DNA of 63,840 nucleotides, filler included, from an uncultured Methanosarcinales archaeon (lineage in GTDB: Archaea; Nanobdellota; Nanobdellia; Woesearchaeales; CAYSVS01), in NCBI GenBank assembly GCA_964434475.1. It is 8 parts of 8 records of this genome, joined end to end, with 100 filler letters (N's around TTAATTAATTAA, not from the genome) between each part and the next. Parts side by side here need not be neighbours in the genome. Positions count along the whole stretch, not along the records: positions 17,923 to 26,664 come from CAYSVS010000055.1; positions 26,765 to 34,886 come from CAYSVS010000056.1; 6 more parts are not named here. One strand, written 5' to 3'. Below, one piece after another: positions 18,001 to 27,000 of the stretch. Each line of letters starts with the position of its first letter. Position 1 is the stretch's first letter. The position numbers are program-made.

Positions 18001-21000
18001 AATTGAAACAAACATCTCAAATCGCTGTTATACACCCCAAGCGAAGCGAGAGTGCAGCATTTCCGACTGACTGAAAGGAAGGAGAGTAATTTTTAGTGGC
18101 GTTCCTTTAAACTTGTAAGAGCCTTAGAGAACATACTTATGGGAGTTCCGTTCAATCAATGCGAACAAAGTGATTCTTTAAGAACAAATATTTAGGAGCG
18201 AGAAAACATGTATTTATCTTCACAACAACTATTCATATATTTATCACAACTAACTGCTCTCATATTGCTCAAATCATTCCATAAATTGGGAAGTGTTATT
18301 TCAAGAACATTTCCTATGGGTTTAGCAGTGAAATCGCAAGGATGCATCTCTCCATATGGGCTTATATAAAAATAATTTCTACCTGCTGAACATCCAAATG
18401 TTGATTGGTCTCTAAACCTAGCATAGCAAAAAATTCCAGGAAAATCTTTTTTTGCATTATATTTATCTACTATTGCAAATAATCTCTTTTTATCTATCTT
18501 TTTGTTGTTGATATCTTTTTTGTGGGAATACATACCAACAGGTAATGTATCAAAAAGGATTAATTCATTTACTTTAAGTCTTTTAGCTAAATGAATCATT
18601 TTTTCAAAACTTCCATCTTCTATATCATCCTGAATAACAGTTGTTGATATTGCTGTAAGCAAACCAATTCTTTGGGCCTTTTTTATTCCTTTAATTGCTT
18701 TTTCAAAAAGTCCTGGAAGATGTCTATATCTGTCATGTTTTTCAGCTGTTGTTCCATCTAAACTTACAATTATCATCATCAAGCCAGATTTTTTTAATTT
18801 ATCACATTTTTCTTCTAGAAACCATCCGTTTGTAAAAATACTCGAAGATGATTTATCTTTATCAATTGAGGATATAATTTCAGAAAGCTCATCTCTTAAA
18901 AGAGGTTCGCCTCCAACAAAATTTATTACAGAACAACCAAAATCTTGGCAAGATTTAATTATCTCTTTTACTTGATTAATGCCCAATACTTTTTGTTTTT
19001 TCTTGTCCATAGCAGTATAGAAACTGCAATGTTCACATTTAGCATTACATTTATCTGTCACTGCTATATTAGCCATACCAGGTAAAGGTTTTTGCATCAA
19101 ATTACTCATAAGCCTTCTTGCAAGAGTATTTCCTAAAGCTTTACTAAGACCCGGAGTCAGAAAAGCCGAATAGACAGGATGCCCTTTAAACCATCCAATT
19201 ATTTTGTGATGTCCTAAATAATAATCAAGGAAGTAATCATTAAATGAATTAAGATAACTGCCTGTATTTTTTAATGTTGATAATATATATCTAATTTTAT
19301 TCAGCATAATAACCTATTTAAAGACATAGATTATAAATCTTTTGTTGGGCATCGACTATCCTAAGCATATACCCAATACAGTGAATAATTTAACAGCCAA
19401 AAGAGAAATAGACCAAATAAAAATAAAAAGAGAGAATATAACTATAAAGCTATCCTTAAAATTAAGTTGGATAATTTTTTTCTCTAATTTTAAAAATAAT
19501 ATTATTAGGATAATATAGAAAATTAGCAATAGTGGAATTAAATGTAATATGAAACAATTCATTGTATCTGGAGTAAAACAAATAGCAGCTTCGTCTAATA
19601 TCATTTTTTACTTTTTAGAAATCTTTCCTAATTTCTTATAAATAGCAATACCTGCAAAAATCACTAAGGGTATTGCAATTGGCCAGGCTAAAATGAATAA
19701 ACATATGATTATAGGCATTATTGCAATTGAACCACCTATTATAGTAATCAATATTACTATAGTCAAAAAAATTCTTCCTACTTTTTTGTCTGCTGAATCT
19801 TTACTATGACTTTCAGGAACTTCTGCTGAAATACCTTGAGGTGCATAATCATCCATTTAATTTCACCTCAAATAAATGATTAACATACTTATAGAATGCT
19901 AATATCAATGCTGTAAATAATGGTACTGCATATATTGCTTCAAGCGGAACTGTTGTTAGTGGAATCGTAAATCCAGTCATTGTTTCAGTAAGAATTGGCG
20001 CATACTTTCTTATGCCTGTCTCTAATAACATCATTTCTAAAGGGACTGTTATTGCTTCGCTAAATAGAAGATACAACCAGAATCTTTTTCTTTCTGGTAG
20101 GTGGTAGAATGCATAATCTACTATCAATATAGAGACCATAAATATATTAACCCACCCAAGTGTGATTATCCATGTTATATCCTTATACAGATATGCCCAA
20201 GAGTCAAATCCTATATTTATCCACATAGACTCACTCATCAATTCAAAAAGCAAAACTCCCACAAATAAGATTATCAATTTACGAAGTATATTTTTGTGAC
20301 CTTTCTTTTTCATAAAGACGTATATGCCTACTGTAAAGAGAATGATAAAGATTTCGAGAAATAAGGCAAAACTCATTTCTTTTTACCTCTATTTGATTTT
20401 AGCTTTTGTTTTGTTTTTTCATCAAAACAAATTTCCCAATATCTAACAAAAGATACCATTAATGCCATAAAAACAGGGATATAATATAAAGCTTCGATTG
20501 GCACTTTACCATAACCAAGCATTATGCCAGACAATGATTGTTTAACTGCTTCTGGGTAGAATCTTATTTCAAGACCAACTACAACCCATTCAGCAAAAAA
20601 TCCTATTATTCCTATGAAAATAACCGAAATAACATATCTAAACCTTTCTGTAAGGTTTGGTAAATAAAGATTAATTAGTTCCATACAAACAGTAATTATT
20701 CCAGCCCAACCAATAGTAAGAATCCAATTGATATCTAGATACAAATATGACCATGGCTCTAGATTATGATTTAACCACAATGCTTGGGTAAAATATTCAA
20801 AAAGTAATACAGCAACAAAAGCTAAGCCAAATCTTCTTAATACTTTGTTATTTAACTTATAAAGAATAAGTAAAAATAATGCTACTAAAGAAATGATCGA
20901 TATCTCAAATATCATATTACTTATAATTTGCTAATATTTATATATAAATGTTTGGTTTTTAAATGCTATGGTGAAGTTAGCATATAACAGAATAGGAAAT

Positions 21001-24000: not shown

Positions 24001-27000
24001 AAAGCTGGAATTTTGTTCCGTTGTCTTATGAAGAATTTAGATTTCTTTATGAAGATATTATCAATAATGTTGATCTGTCATTTATTGAAATTGCAGAAGA
24101 TAAAGATGGAAAACCTGTTGGTTTTTGTTTTACTTTACCGCACCCTTACAATAAGGAACAGATAATTCTTAAGACAATCGGGGTTTTACCTTATTTGAGA
24201 AAACAAAATATAGCAGGAGCTTTGCTTTATTCTCAGCATACTAAAGCAAAAAAAGAAGGATTTAGGGAATTTTATTATCCATTGATCAGAGTTGGTAATG
24301 ATGTAACCAAATTTCCTTATGAAGGATATGAACTAATAACAGAATATGAAGTTTTTGAACTTAGTTAAGGTATATATTTTCTCCAGATTTCACTCTATTT
24401 AATAAGCATGATGGAACAAGCTTATTATCATATAGCATTGCATCGGGACAGCTATTACAAATATTCCATGAATCTTCAATCTTATCAGGAGCATCTATTA
24501 AAAGAACAACTTGTGAATTAATATAATCTCCATTGTATCTTTTTGCATTTTTGAGTATCGCTCTCACAGATTTATTGGTAAATGCAGGCAATAATTTTGA
24601 TATTTTGATGGGCTTATTCTTGATTGTGATAAAATGCTTATTTTTCTTTTTATAATATCTTTGCTGTATAGATTTGTAAATATCTTTGTCAAAAGATCCT
24701 AGATAATTTCCGTTTTTATAAGCAGACAAAGAAAAAAGCCATGAAATATCCTTTGATTTATTTTTGCCAAGATATGCGCAATAAGATAACCCAAATGCAT
24801 CTTTGACAGCTGAACTAGCTTCTTCCATGGTTAATGCTAACTCTTTATCCAGTGTTTTGTTAGGGAGCATTTCCTTTATTGTGGTAAATACAACCAAATT
24901 AATAATATCTGAATTTTTCTTATAAAAATCTGCTAAGATGGGCAAATCTACAATGTTCTTTTTAGAAAGAGGCATGATGAAACCAAGATTTACTCCTCCG
25001 ATCTTCCTGAATAATTCACAATATTTCTTTCTTATATTATTCATTTCCTTTTCTGATTCAGAATTCCTTTGATATTTGTCAATATGAATAATAAATTCTG
25101 TTGCTCCGTATTTTTTCAAATTTCTTAATCTTTCTTCATTTAGTGCTACAGCATTCGTATATATTTTTGTTTTCAGGTTTTTTGAACTGATATAGCTTAT
25201 TAGTTTTTCAATATGGGGATATAGTAAAGGTTCTCCGCCTGCTAATGATATTGACTGCACGTTTCTGTTATCAATAAACCAATCAACCTGTTTTTTTAGA
25301 TTTTGTAAGTCTTCATGTTTGTTTTTATGGCTTTTTTCTGCTAATCCTCTGTAACATCCAGGACATTTAAATTGACAGAATGTTGTTGGTTCAATCCATC
25401 CATTTGGATTATTGTAAATAGACCAGTTTAATTCAAATAAATTGTCTTTATTTAATAAAGGTTGATTGATAATTATATCATAAGTTTCATCTGCTAAAGG
25501 CTGAAGATCTTCTGGAAAAGATGAATGCCTAAATGGTTTTTTGAATCCAATATTAACATGAGGATTATTATAGGCAATATTAACAGGGAAAATTAAGCTG
25601 TTTTTTACTTCTCTATTTAGATAATTAGCTCCTACTTTTACTTTATACTTCTTATTTTCTTGCTCAAGTTTTCCTGATGGAAATATAAATATTGTTTCTC
25701 CTTTGTTTAAAAGTAGCTTTGATTTCTCAAGAACTGATTTTCCGTCATTTTGTTTTGTAGATATACACCCATAAAGCAATAAAAAAGGTTTTAATAGAAT
25801 ATTCTTCATGTATTTTTCTGCTGTTATAAATCTTAAAGGTATTAGTTTGATGAAGTTTTTTAATGGAATGGAATATGATATCAAGAATGGATCGATCTTC
25901 TTAGGATGGTTGGCAATAATTATGTGAGTTTTGTTTTTTTCTAGTTTAAAATCAATGTTTGTATTAACTTGGAAAATTATTTTTAAAGGTATTCCTATTA
26001 AAAAATAGGTTAAAAATTGCCAGAACATTACTATTATATTTTTCATATGGTGAATAACCTCTCATTACTATTTAAATATATTTACTAAAATTAAAATTAT
26101 ATCTGAGCCGACATAAAATAAAATGGCATTAATTTGAAAGTAAATACTTGAAATTTTATTTTTTAAAAAATAAATCATTATTAGTGATATTAAACAAACA
26201 ATGAAAAAAGTGAAAGATATAATATAAAAAAGATAACCTACATTTAATAAAAATAAAATCCATAATAAAAATAAGAATGCTAATATAATAATTAGAGAAT
26301 ATATTATACATGATTTTTTTAAACCAAATCTAACAGAATATGTGTCGTTTCCTTGAGTTTCTTCTCTAGTAACTTTAATTTTCCGATTCTGGTCGCCTAC
26401 CCACAGCAAGACACCTTCGTCTGTATGAACCCGCTCAACCCCGACTCCGACGGCGACGGCCTGCTCGACGGCGTCGAGGACCTCAACCACGACGGCATCT
26501 TCGACTTCGAGCCGGGTGATTTCGACCACGCGGGCCAGGGGCCCATCCCCGGCCCGGCGCAGGACAACCCCGAGGAGACCAACCCCTGCGACCCCGACAC
26601 CGACGACGACGGGCTCACGGACTTCGACGAGCGCAACCAGCCCAACCCGCCGGCGGGCACGACCNNNNNNNNNNNNNNNNNNNNNNNNNNNNNNNNNNNN
26701 NNNNNNNNTTAATTAATTAANNNNNNNNNNNNNNNNNNNNNNNNNNNNNNNNNNNNNNNNNNNNTGTCTCATTTAGTTCTGTTTTATTTTCCACGTATGT
26801 AATATTTGTTTCATTCAAGTCAATGCTTTCATTCATCCAAGTATCATTGATCATATCAACAATTGTCTCATTCATTATTCCTGCGTTGTAGCTTGCATTT
26901 GTCTCATTGAAAGCGAATGCAAATCCTGAAGCTAGAGCAAGCATCATCAATAATGCAAAAATCATCTGCACGTTCCTTTTTTTAGTCGCGTGCATCATTT

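Follow-up and report, generated by a model that had tools for sequence, protein, structure and literature searches.

The 561-aa protein described here is probably a genuine two-domain membrane-lipid enzyme, made up of a PlsC-type acyltransferase and, in the same chain, a compact, Tes-like radical-SAM enzyme. The explanation that we favour as a whole places it in a lipid gene cluster that is conserved and has spread horizontally, i.e. an accessory membrane-lipid remodelling pathway with the tail-modifying radical-SAM enzyme at its core. A lipid substrate, as already proposed in the initial annotation, is supported because four independent lines point to it: the fold of the radical-SAM part, the genes around it, its fusion to PlsC and, in a sister family, a fusion to PAP2. 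The function, previously given as unknown, can be narrowed to membrane-lipid modification.

The window, i.e. the whole stretch of 63,840 nucleotides that was analysed, is a chain of MAG contigs, and the contig with the fusion gene occupies only window positions 17923-26664 (8742 bp). The following features are found on it:

24361-26046, minus strand: 561-aa PlsC/radical-SAM fusion protein, P0003 (ORF)
25462..26046, minus strand: N-terminal PlsC/LPLAT acyltransferase domain, aa 1-195 of the fusion (Pfam, motifs, AF2 model)
24361..25461, minus strand: radical-SAM part, aa 196-561 plus stop (Pfam, Cys columns, profile against PDB, Foldseek, VIA-align)
23358..24368, plus strand: tandem-GNAT N-acyltransferase, 336 aa, P0002 (Pfam, AF2, Foldseek, tblastn)
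20968..23361, plus strand: Rph/PigC-type phosphotransferase, 797 aa, P0001 (Pfam, NCBIfam, PDB chains)
26068..26386, minus strand: C-terminal third of a UbiA-family prenyltransferase gene (Pfam below cut-off, tblastn)
20373-20915, minus strand: polytopic membrane protein u180, 180 aa, tandem paralogue of u175 (ORF)
19849-20376, minus strand: polytopic membrane protein u175, 175 aa, tandem paralogue of u180 (ORF)
19356..19856, minus strand: two hydrophobic ORFs of 82 aa each, flanked by the u180/u175 pair and the SPASM gene (ORFs)
18192..19307, minus strand: radical-SAM protein with a SPASM domain, 371 aa, terminal gene of the minus-strand operon (Pfam, NCBIfam)

The reading frames confirm the previously described fusion, with both Pfam domains in place and intact. 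The two neighbouring genes do adjoin it as annotated, but the fusion gene is encoded on the other strand and converges on them, its 3' end overlapping that of the GNAT gene by 8 bp. Phosphotransferase and GNAT genes form a translationally coupled pair, the GNAT start overlapping the phosphotransferase stop by 4 bp. On the other side, 22 bp upstream of the fusion gene and on the same strand, lies the UbiA fragment (Pfam UbiA 20.2 and 19.2 bits, under the 34.2 cut-off), and the gene cluster runs on into another contig of the same genome (G000:C60) which carries the N-terminal 200 residues: with the UbiA protein of locus L001 as tblastn query, residues 198-295 are found on C55 and residues 1-200 on C60, and both contigs have a 9-bp junction in common.

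In the N-terminal domain, Pfam Acyltransferase (PF01553) matches residues 34-157 with 47.1 bits (cut-off 23), the HX4D motif is intact (H47-x4-D52), FPSG is present at 122-125, and one hydrophobic helix is located at the N-terminus. The AF2 model of the fusion protein has a pLDDT of 92.5, and its PlsC part superimposes on T. maritima PlsC 5KYM with Z 15.2 over 178 residues. A homolog search with the fusion protein gave 119 proteins at E<=1e-5; counting the query, 8 of them combine PF01553 with the radical-SAM Pfam domain. HX4D, FPxG and CX3CX2C are retained in all seven full-length fused homologs. In 3 of 80 loci (tblastn, +-10 kb), the PlsC part immediately precedes the radical-SAM part, namely as the same fusion in L001 and as a separate, overlapping gene in L008 and L021, while L006 and L018 have a PlsC-containing gene within the same one-strand cluster.

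The relatives of the radical-SAM part form an uncharacterised family of proteins with 360-395 aa, to which DPANN archaea, CPR bacteria and Bacteroidales contribute members. Radical_SAM (PF04055) matches residues 218-341 with 68.7 bits (cut-off 29.5). Its motifs comprise CX3CX2C (C224/C228/C231), GGEP at 270, a conserved C343 and, at the C-terminus, C530-x2-C533-PDAM...C547; the Cys columns are invariant in two alignments (A1, A2). No PDB chain is matched by the sequence of the C-terminal region, even at E<=10. The closest solved relative of the radical-SAM part, by a wide margin, is the archaeal tetraether lipid synthase Tes/GDGT-MAS, which corrects the earlier statement that there is none. 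Structure 7TOL is the top match of the family profile in the PDB (E 2.3e-18, followed by SuiB with 3.9e-10) and is found by Foldseek with the fusion model (E 9e-13 over 412 columns). VIA-align superimposes model residues 195-556 on residues 47-480 of the chain with Z 25.4 (309 residues, rmsd 3.4), viperin being the runner-up with Z 19.3 over 225 residues. Membership in the Tes family itself was rejected, as NCBIfam NF045702 gives 38.4 bits against a cut-off of 450.

The phosphotransferase comprises an ATP-grasp, a central and a swivelling phospho-His domain (GGLLSH, His756), with Pfam matches to PPDK_N (104.8 bits, cut-off 27) and PEP-utilizers (82.3, cut-off 23.1), and the PEP/pyruvate barrel is absent from its 797 residues. 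All its NCBIfam matches stay under the equivalog cut-offs (PigC 179 versus 1300, Rph 176 versus 999), and the best PDB chains are 5fbs/5hv1 (E 2.7e-44). In P0002, Acetyltransf_1 covers residues 219-305 (31.6 bits, cut-off 20.7), and the tandem GNAT fold assigned initially is upheld by an AF2 model of pLDDT 95.0 and by top Foldseek matches which are all tandem GNATs (4zm6, 7q3a, 2wpw and MshD 2c27). Among the remaining genes, u180 and u175 are paralogous (31% identity, E 1e-25), contain hydrophobic segments and are transcribed divergently from the phosphotransferase gene; the pair occupies the same position in four archaeal loci (L001, L002, L004, L008). The SPASM protein matches Radical_SAM (85.1) and SPASM (30.0) in Pfam, and its best NCBIfam matches are NirJ2/AhbD-like (125 bits, under the cut-off). 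It has full-length homologs in L004 (58% identity), L006 and L018, in the latter two after the PlsC-containing gene, and its gene is a recurrent, not a constant, cluster member. Cluster membership of the two 82-aa ORFs is uncertain; they have no tblastn match in the 80 loci and no Pfam family below E 0.04.

The 80 loci, taken with +-10 kb, comprise 22 close loci from DPANN archaea, CPR bacteria and Bacteroidales and 58 loci of a sister family. By tblastn, GNAT homologs occur in 23 and phosphotransferase homologs in 13 of the 80, which, like the count of three for PlsC, is close to the earlier counts, and, as had been reported, both genes are repeatedly found next to members of this radical-SAM family, be it in archaea, in CPR bacteria or in Bacteroidales. 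The proposed three-gene module is nevertheless too narrow, since two further genes are linked to the radical-SAM gene at least as often: a BtaA-like DUF3419 gene is the most frequent neighbour (14 of the 22 close loci) and often directly adjacent, and in 13 a UbiA gene is the immediate neighbour of the radical-SAM gene. All 13 phosphotransferase loci are close loci, and the GNAT is found in 10 of the 22 by ORF clustering (12 by tblastn). At least one of these four partners accompanies the radical-SAM gene in 16 close loci and none in the other six: L010-L013 and L015 have other contexts, and L016 is cut 998 bp downstream. Subsets of the close loci also carry a FAR-like, thioester-reductase-type SDR (5/22), lipid kinases (DAGK-type in 5/22; YegS/DgkB in archaea, phytol-kinase/CdsA-like in bacteria), the f23 membrane protein (5/22), PlsC or the SPASM radical-SAM gene (3/22). 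In CPR and Bacteroidales loci, the phosphotransferase and GNAT genes run co-linearly with those for the radical-SAM enzyme, DUF3419 and UbiA, and the gene ends overlap; in L009 and L042, eight genes with overlapping ends share one strand. It counts against the favoured reading, as do the six loci with none of the partners, that the fusion gene in the archaeal loci is convergent and not co-transcribed with the phosphotransferase-GNAT pair, and that Curtissbacteria-type loci show a different, envelope-related context.

The sister family (24-31% identity) is surrounded by lipid genes. Its neighbours include CFA synthase, patatin, GDPD, MlaDEF, a PEMT-PAP2-LGT fusion, CDP-alcohol phosphatidyltransferase, an alpha-oxoamine-synthase-type aminotransferase, SDRs and acyl-CoA dehydrogenase. 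Downstream of the sister radical-SAM gene, 16 of the 58 loci carry a member of the same GNAT family; DUF3419, UbiA and phosphotransferase occur in none of the 58. A second, independent fusion is seen in P0251, a PAP2 lipid phosphatase joined to a radical-SAM part of the sister type, which can be aligned with that of the window from one end to the other (E 2e-28).

The host is a small symbiotic archaeon which has the cluster in common with further ultra-small microbes. Its genome is archaeal (aEF-2 1066.8 bits) and 97% complete; PcrB/GGGPS, Fe-ADH_2/G1PDH and PP-binding/ACP have no match in it, and it also encodes a second PlsB/PlsC-like acyltransferase, a GpsA-like dehydrogenase and FabF. The rarity of the cluster is a further point against the favoured reading: of the 151 genomes sampled from this order, 4 were found to have it, the host's own among them, and the one same-genus genome was not one of these. 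From homology and context, we infer the following steps for the cluster enzymes. The acyltransferase domain would transfer an acyl chain onto a lyso-lipid, and the radical-SAM domain would abstract a hydrogen at an unactivated carbon of a hydrocarbon tail. A new bond may then form at that carbon, aided by a predicted C-terminal Fe-S cluster, most likely a C-C bond that joins tails in the manner of Tes and Mss. An amino-acid-type head group would be built and decorated by the BtaA-like enzyme, a putative SAM:lipid 3-amino-3-carboxypropyl transferase, together with GNAT and phosphotransferase, presumably giving an ether-linked homoserine with N-acylated or N-acetylated amine plus a phosphorylated hydroxyl; the roles of the UbiA enzyme and the phosphotransferase are guesses. 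As an accessory element, the cluster would remodel largely scavenged lipids.

It is unlikely that an isoprenoid product (a prenylated quinone, carotenoid-like pigment or polyprenyl lipid) is made or salvaged instead of an acyl glycerolipid. A prenol kinase and the phosphotransferase would then regenerate prenyl diphosphate for transfer by UbiA, the paralogous membrane proteins would together serve as a heterodimeric cyclase, and modification of the prenyl chain would fall to the radical-SAM enzyme. This would account for the frequent UbiA genes, but the two UbiA halves of the module score only 28.9 and 19.2 bits in Pfam, with the subfamily undefined. The sole family lead for u180/u175 is a weak Lycopene_cyc match in the L002 homolog (E 0.015), reaching 16.3 bits against a cut-off of 27 and seen in one of five family members scanned. 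A membrane protein of the bacterial loci has Atlas look-alikes with the names phytol kinase and phosphatidate cytidylyltransferase (score 0.95, TM 0.93), and isoprenoid chains are the substrate of Tes itself; still, the loci showed no genes for isoprenoid synthesis, and the PlsC fusion favours acyl esters.

Alternatively, the prominence of the BtaA-like neighbour could mean that the radical-SAM enzyme acts on the head group, not the tails, and rearranges or cross-links the installed homoserine moiety, e.g. by a radical carbon-skeleton shift from DGTS-type to DGTA-type, with GNAT and phosphotransferase finishing the head group. Such rearrangements are typically catalysed by radical enzymes, which favours this reading. 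So does a passage of PMC10685587, in which the enzyme for DGTS-to-DGTA conversion is stated as unknown. We consider it quite improbable, since the nearest fold, Tes, binds lipid tails, the fusions to PlsC and PAP2 suggest the glycerolipid core, not a homoserine head group, as the site of action, and the sister family lacks DUF3419 yet resides among tail-modifying and acyl-lipid genes (CFA synthase, acyl-CoA dehydrogenase).

It is very unlikely that the phosphotransferase-GNAT pair serves to modify small molecules (xenobiotics or antibiotics), or that the whole locus is a natural-product/RiPP cluster with the SPASM protein as maturase, the two small ORFs as precursors and further tailoring enzymes, so that nearness to the fusion gene would be functionally meaningless. 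Rph-type phosphotransferases and tandem GNATs do include drug-modifying enzymes (relatives 5fbs/5hv1, Eis/MshD-type folds), the 82-aa ORFs precede a SPASM gene, and the fusion gene is convergent with the pair. Yet the pair is co-linear with the lipid genes in CPR and Bacteroidales, the same GNAT family occurs in phosphotransferase-free sister loci, the SPASM gene is infrequent, and the 82-aa ORFs are hydrophobic and without a match in the 80 loci. Finally, an assembly or gene-calling artefact of a fragmented MAG, suggested by the short contig whose last ~278 bp are chimeric, foreign high-GC DNA (the GC content climbs there from 0.285 to 0.692), is extremely improbable, as the domain junction lies at least 0.9 kb from that end, seven further fused proteins with 52-81% identity come from other assemblies, L001 shows the same fusion on a 32.5-kb contig, and the linker, too, is modelled with confidence by AF2 (blocks 78-96).

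In favour of the lipid reading, passages of PMC11868695 and PMC13159169 report hits to Mss, Ger and ElbD homologs in Woesearchaeia/DPANN and propose bacterial-like lipid modification there. On the opposing side, compared by published motifs, the family consensus of our tail-modifying candidate lacks the Mss motif VEPC, and Block I reads CQxxCxGC, not the CNxxCxGC of Mss, in 19 of 21 motif-bearing close-family sequences. Relative to Tes, the family is compact, dispensing with the N-terminal cluster domain and the rubredoxin domain, but it has kept the radical-SAM core along with a C-terminal domain that resembles the one in Tes and in which three cysteines are conserved.

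The three genes first described lie on a single 8742-bp contig, C55 (window 17923-26664), of a 1.50-Mb genome in 148 contigs (97% complete), and the window sets contigs of this one MAG in series with N runs in between. ORF calling bore out the three genes proposed by the initial annotation in their positions, and all domains named there were recovered by Pfam:

20968-23361, + strand: phosphotransferase, ORF of 797 aa
23358-24368, + strand: tandem GNAT, ORF of 336 aa, its start overlapping the phosphotransferase stop by 4 bp
24361-26046, - strand: PlsC-radical-SAM fusion, ORF of 561 aa, convergent on the GNAT/phosphotransferase pair with a 3' overlap of 8 bp

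The motifs of both halves of the fusion protein are intact. Its N-terminal part belongs to the PlsC/LPLAT acyltransferases (PF01553, 47.1 bits versus a cut-off of 23) and retains the HX4D motif as HPKKID at residues 47-52 (H47-D52) as well as FPSG at 122-125. The C-terminal part belongs to the radical SAM superfamily (PF04055, 68.7 bits versus a gathering cut-off of 29.5) and retains the cluster motif C224-x3-C228-x2-C231 together with GGEP at 270. All four motifs are kept in 7/7 full-length fused homologs, the CX3CX2C cysteines being invariant across 73 aligned sequences, and the AF2 model of the fusion protein is confident (pLDDT 92.5, pTM 0.81). Searching 5.8 billion proteins gave 119 matches at E<=1e-5. 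The matches as far as E 5.7e-74, query included, are mostly 350-395 aa long and form one family; beyond them the E-values drop off abruptly, first to 2e-45 and next to 4e-7. The fusion itself is real, as previously claimed: PF01553 is found on eight of these 119 proteins (query included), and a ninth fused protein (P0012), cut at its 5' end, retains the end of the domain. In a quick tree, the fused forms all fall into one well-supported clade of 17 archaeal-type rows, intermixed with unfused forms. In two loci from another archaeal clade (L008, L021), PlsC is encoded by a gene of its own, which overlaps the radical-SAM start, and two Gracilibacteria-type loci (code 25) carry a PlsC-containing gene of 359-362 aa in the same one-strand cluster; hence, the link to PlsC extends beyond the fusion. 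The nearest relatives of the cluster genes come from records labelled Woesearchaeota or Nanoarchaeota. The cluster is rare: of 151 genomes sampled from the same order, only 4, counting that of the host itself, match at E<=1e-20, and the one same-genus genome does not.

A solved relative of the radical-SAM part, reported as lacking in the initial annotation, does exist. A profile built from 28 family members matches 7TOL at E 2.3e-18 (69.7 bits), the structure of the tetraether lipid synthase Tes (GDGT-MAS) from Methanocaldococcus jannaschii and, to our knowledge, the only structurally known tail-coupling lipid synthase; the runner-up in this PDB profile search was SuiB at 3.9e-10. Foldseek with the AF2 model likewise placed 7TOL/7TOM first (E 9e-13, 412-427 aligned columns, compared to about 240-270 for other radical-SAM enzymes), and VIA-align superimposed model residues 195-556 on residues 47-480 of the 7TOL chain (Z 25.4, rmsd 3.4 Å, 309 residues), followed by viperin with Z 19.3 over 225 residues. 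According to these models, the radical-SAM part is Tes-like in fold, and the likeness spans the radical-SAM core plus the C-terminal domain. In Tes, the latter is described as carrying a catalytic auxiliary [4Fe-4S] cluster, ligated by three Cys and one Met, which retains the first substrate radical during the making of the second (PMC13459092). The present family has C-terminal cysteines of its own, with C530 and C547 invariant and C533 present in at least 90% of sequences; C343 is also conserved. The three C-terminal Cys are candidate ligands of an auxiliary cluster. The motif concerned, CxxCPDAM...C, gave no PDB sequence match at E<=10 when a profile of the C-terminal domain was used.

The genomic surroundings were compared in 80 loci from species genomes (+-10 kb), 22 of which carry a member of the close family (36-64% identity) and 58 a member of a sister family (24-31%); all ORFs were clustered and representatives were scanned against Pfam and NCBIfam. 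The initial annotation had described a conserved three-gene module. Its phosphotransferase and GNAT do recur beside the radical-SAM gene, but the conserved set is much larger.

Genes recurring in the 22 close-family loci
DUF3419: 14/22
UbiA prenyltransferase: 13/22
Phosphotransferase: 13/22
GNAT: 10/22 by clustering, 12/22 by tblastn
NAD_binding_4 / thioester-reductase-type SDR: 5/22
YegS/DgkB-type lipid kinase: 5/22
f23, a membrane protein of ~209 aa: 5/22
Paralogous membrane pair (u175/u180): 4/22
SPASM radical-SAM protein: 3/22

At least one of DUF3419, UbiA, phosphotransferase and GNAT is present in 16 close loci, including three (L005, L017, L020) that are cut within 1.8 kb downstream. 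Five of the remaining six (L010-L013, L015) represent other contexts and the sixth (L016) ends 998 bp downstream; Curtissbacteria-type loci among them have glycosyltransferase-39-like, sulfatase-family and giant proteins instead. None of the 58 sister loci contains DUF3419, UbiA or the phosphotransferase, which provides a background control for the counts in the close family. A multi-gene lipid cluster is conserved and common to two domains of life, with the tandem GNAT and the Rph/PigC-type phosphotransferase as recurrent partners. In Patescibacteria (L009, L042), it consists of eight one-strand genes with overlapping ends, namely membrane protein, SDR, DUF3419, UbiA, radical SAM, phosphotransferase, GNAT and f23. 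Archaeal loci are ordered as in the window: kinase, DUF3419, (SDR), UbiA and [PlsC-]radical SAM, then the convergent phosphotransferase-GNAT pair and the divergent membrane pair. A reading as RiPP cluster was rejected, the SPASM gene occurring in only 3/22 close loci.

Among the small and membrane proteins, Pfam searches at E<=5 returned nothing usable apart from a single Lycopene_cyc match. The two tandem paralogous membrane proteins at window 19849-20915 are 31% identical to each other, and their arrangement resembles that of heterodimeric lycopene cyclases; the sole support for this likeness is that match, at E 0.015, in the L002 homolog. For the 180-aa membrane protein, the ESM Atlas gave unnamed clusters only, with recognition under the bar, and for f23 it gave phytol kinase and phosphatidate cytidylyltransferase as look-alikes (score 0.95, structural TM 0.93), to be taken as a lead rather than a test. 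Found close to the radical-SAM gene in two Curtissbacteria-type loci (L012:13794-21104, L013:7843-11213) are a bAvd/23S-rRNA-IVP-family protein and a giant protein (1850 to >2090 aa), a pairing reminiscent of a diversity-generating retroelement with its accessory protein and its target.

On C55, the archaeal layout is interrupted by the assembly. The GC content switches from 28.5% to 69.2% near C55:8464 (window ~26386), which is also where UbiA, located upstream of the fusion gene, breaks off. The last ~278 bp of the contig (window 26387-26664) encode Asp-rich, calcium-binding-type repeats (DxDxDG-like) on the + strand, and this stretch is foreign DNA, i.e. a chimeric assembly end of C55. Judged by eye, the repeats are thrombospondin-type-3-like. 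The first 200 residues of UbiA are found at the start of contig C60, which has 9 bases in common with C55 at the break point and is its true continuation in the same genome. After the UbiA start, C60 encodes DUF3419 (191.9 bits versus a cut-off of 28.2) and a YegS-family lipid kinase (122.6 bits versus 118.65), so that this genome possesses the full archaeal cluster layout except for the SDR. Elsewhere in the window, runs of exactly 100 N at 12363-12462 (inside C54) and 45558-45657 (inside C58) are either scaffold gaps or masked stretches; they are unlike the 44-N pairs between contigs.

Lipid genes also surround the sister family, in which the loci contain cyclopropane-fatty-acid synthase, patatin-like phospholipase, GDPD, a glycerol-3-phosphate oxidase-type flavoprotein, acyl-CoA dehydrogenase, MlaD/E/F, a PEMT-PAP2-LGT fusion, CDP-alcohol phosphatidyltransferase, class I/II aminotransferase with SDRs, and sulfotransferase. 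Two to three radical-SAM paralogs in a row, followed by a tandem GNAT from the same family as that of the window, occur in 16 of the 58 loci. A profile search of 1.84 billion representatives, yielding 246 proteins at E<=1e-30, additionally revealed a protein of 623 aa (P0251) in which a PAP2 lipid phosphatase domain (66-200) is followed by a radical-SAM part of the sister family (219-602). The latter aligns end to end with that of the window, C-terminal CxxCP...C motif included (E 2e-28), and the protein represents a second case of fusion with a glycerolipid enzyme, independent of the first. Flanking the radical-SAM gene in the Bacteroidota sister loci L046 (623-11266), L036 and L047 are two B12-binding radical-SAM genes, a larger radical-SAM gene of the SPASM group, MatE, MlaE/MlaF/MlaD and CFA synthase — a dense set of lipid-modifying and lipid-transport genes.

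The host is archaeal (aEF-2, 1066.8 bits versus a cut-off of 738), and no match to PcrB/GGGPS, Fe-ADH_2/G1PDH or the ACP domain PP-binding was obtained in its 97%-complete genome. The genome has a second UbiA, and C56, which is the next contig in the window (26765-34886), encodes its second PlsB/PlsC-like acyltransferase (335 aa), a GpsA-like glycerol-3-phosphate dehydrogenase and FabF (427.5 bits versus a cut-off of 387), adjoined by a PfkB-family kinase. Together, these C56 genes equip a DPANN archaeon with an acyl-lipid tool kit of the bacterial type. For Woesearchaeia MAGs, matches to Mss, Ger and ElbD homologs have been described and bacterial-like lipid modification has been suggested (PMC11868695). 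Two further observations concern other contigs of the window. On C54 (window 14040-16463), a 518-aa B12-binding-domain/radical-SAM protein next to an alpha/beta hydrolase is TIGR04013-like (49.9 bits, below cut-off) and may likewise be a radical enzyme that modifies lipids or cofactors. C57 (window 35099-42548) contains three large ORFs (592, 530 and 959 aa) that gave weak bacterial Ig-like domain matches alone and are probably symbiont surface proteins.

We consider it likely that the radical-SAM protein is a lipid-modifying enzyme within a lipid cluster. A specific scheme of tail coupling and head-group construction is much less certain, and both taken jointly appear to us a reasonably probable explanation. 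In such a scheme, the radical-SAM enzyme would act on an unactivated carbon in a lipid tail, activating it and forming a new bond aided by the C-terminal cluster, with the PlsC domain providing the acylated substrate. The BtaA-like enzyme, GNAT and phosphotransferase would work on a head group bearing an amine and a hydroxyl, and the lipid kinases and UbiA might deal with lipid alcohols or prenyl groups. Host-derived lipids are believed to sustain both DPANN archaea and CPR bacteria, and the cluster offers a concrete candidate pathway for how they adapt them. It also bears on the 'lipid divide', with an archaeal host that has bacterial-type acyl-lipid genes and in which homologs of G1P dehydrogenase and GGGP synthase were not detected. 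Should the family couple or modify acyl tails, more enzymes would be at hand for assigning environmental membrane-spanning lipids, used as palaeoclimate proxies, to their producers. A bolder proposal, which we regard as rather unlikely, is that the fusion acts as a self-contained 'acylate, then couple' synthase, by which a DPANN archaeon with no detectable archaeal backbone genes would build bacterial-type, tail-linked (membrane-spanning) ester lipids from scavenged fatty acids, with a phosphorus-free N-acylated homoserine head, the same portable cluster serving likewise in CPR and Bacteroidales. If so, it would represent a third and minimal class among the tail-coupling lipid synthases, besides Tes and Mss, and the large sister family (anaerobic Bacteroidota, Ignavibacteriota, Acidobacteriota-related and Gemmatimonadota) would become a candidate source of branched tetraether-type lipids.

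Several known systems resemble parts of the cluster. The N-terminal domain of the fusion shares the fold of T. maritima PlsC, a 1-acyl-sn-glycerol-3-phosphate acyltransferase (5KYM; Z 15.2 over 178 residues in VIA-align), its HX4D and FPxG motifs and its N-terminal hydrophobic helix, but reaches only 45.6 bits with the NCBIfam AGP_acyltrn model (cut-off 102.95) and is joined to a radical-SAM domain. Like the PEP-synthase-like enzymes Rph (rifampicin phosphotransferase) and PigC (prodigiosin ligase), the phosphotransferase combines an ATP-grasp domain, a central substrate domain and a swivelling His domain with GGxxSH, without the PEP/pyruvate barrel; its best PDB chains are 5fbs/5hv1 (E 2.7e-44), the Listeria Rph, which carry the database name 'phosphoenolpyruvate synthase'. 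It stays below the equivalog cut-offs for Rph (NF041857; 176 versus 999 bits) and PigC (179 versus 1300 bits). Given the shared architecture and catalytic His and the Rph score under cut-off, it is predicted to work like the Rph family without being an Rph ortholog. It further differs from both in being translationally coupled to a tandem GNAT within a lipid cluster.

The GNAT protein contains two GNAT folds per chain (AF2 pLDDT 95.0), with 7q3a, 2wpw, 5kf1 and 2c27 as Foldseek matches (E 1e-14 to 4e-13, 360-371 aligned columns). PF00583 is detected at residues 219-305 only, and the acyl-CoA site is expected in the C-terminal copy. OlsB/OlsA and the bifunctional OlsF are aminolipid synthases pairing an N-acyltransferase with a PlsC-type O-acyltransferase, and ElbD-type ether-lipid enzymes combine reductase and PlsC domains. 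The cluster has comparable elements in its GNAT-fold N-acyltransferase, PlsC-type acyltransferase and, in some loci, thioester-reductase-type SDR; domain order and partners are not the same, and the GNAT matched no OlsB-type model in Pfam or NCBIfam.

BtaA converts DAG and SAM into diacylglyceryl-O-homoserine, and by its sequence the DUF3419 neighbour would belong to the BtaA domain family (PF11899; 189-242 bits in three loci). DUF3419 is described as the BTA1/BtaA domain of betaine-lipid synthesis (PMC10685587). In contrast to the DGTS pathway of BtaA/BtaB, a BtaB-type N-methyltransferase was not seen in the loci, the tandem GNAT occupies the place where an amine-modifying enzyme is expected, and the cluster adds UbiA, radical SAM and phosphotransferase, none of which is known in DGTS synthesis. 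Literature searches found no paper joining DUF3419 with radical SAM, and a search on BtaA in Patescibacteria matched journal DOIs containing 'btaa', not the gene.

Mss, the bacterial membrane-spanning lipid synthase, is a radical-SAM enzyme of 446 aa and a distant relative of Tes that joins fatty-acyl tails under anoxic conditions, exemplified by WP_129545148.1 of T. ethanolicus and Tmari_0825 of T. maritima (Sahonero-Canavesi 2022, PMC13159169). Using thresholds of E<=1e-50 and identity>=30%, homologs were reported there in candidate phyla, the FCB group and DPANN including Woesearchaeota. The supplement of that paper lists CNxxCxGC (Block I) and VEPC (Block V) as conserved. The close family is set apart by this published motif description, as its Block I reads CQxxCxGC in 19/21 motif-bearing sequences, and VEPC is missing from its consensus, appearing at another position in one of the 21 (L013). 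The sister family shares the CNxxCxGC pattern with Mss. A search with an Ignavibacterium sister protein returned close Ignavibacteria/Bacteroidota proteins as the best 120 of 3948 matches, with no named Thermotoga or Thermoanaerobacter Mss among these 120. The main text of PMC13159169 makes no mention of a PlsC fusion of Mss ('acyltransferase', 'PlsC' and 'fusion' are all absent). Lipid radical-SAM enzymes named in PMC13459092 comprise Tes, Mss, Gms, GrsA/B, Gmm, Cds, HpnH/J/P/R, Jaw5 and ladderane candidates, and the literature searched did not describe a PlsC or PAP2 fusion of such an enzyme, or such a cluster.

The closest comparison is with Tes, with which the close family shares, besides the fold, a lipid context. 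Tes is described as a four-domain enzyme, with a rubredoxin-like Fe domain and an N-terminal [4Fe-4S] domain among those before the radical-SAM core (PMC13459092). The close family has no room for either, being 130-160 residues shorter: stand-alone members begin ~25 residues ahead of CX3CX2C and fused members start with PlsC. With ~16% identity and 38.4 bits (E 5.9e-10, radical-SAM core only) in the NCBIfam Tes model NF045702, far from the equivalog cut-off of 450, the radical-SAM part is not a Tes ortholog. The family is found in DPANN, CPR and Bacteroidales, as opposed to tetraether-producing archaea, and some of its members carry the PlsC fusion. What emerges is a compact Tes relative that is fused to glycerolipid enzymes (PlsC, and PAP2 in the sister branch) and tied to a betaine-lipid-type head-group enzyme.
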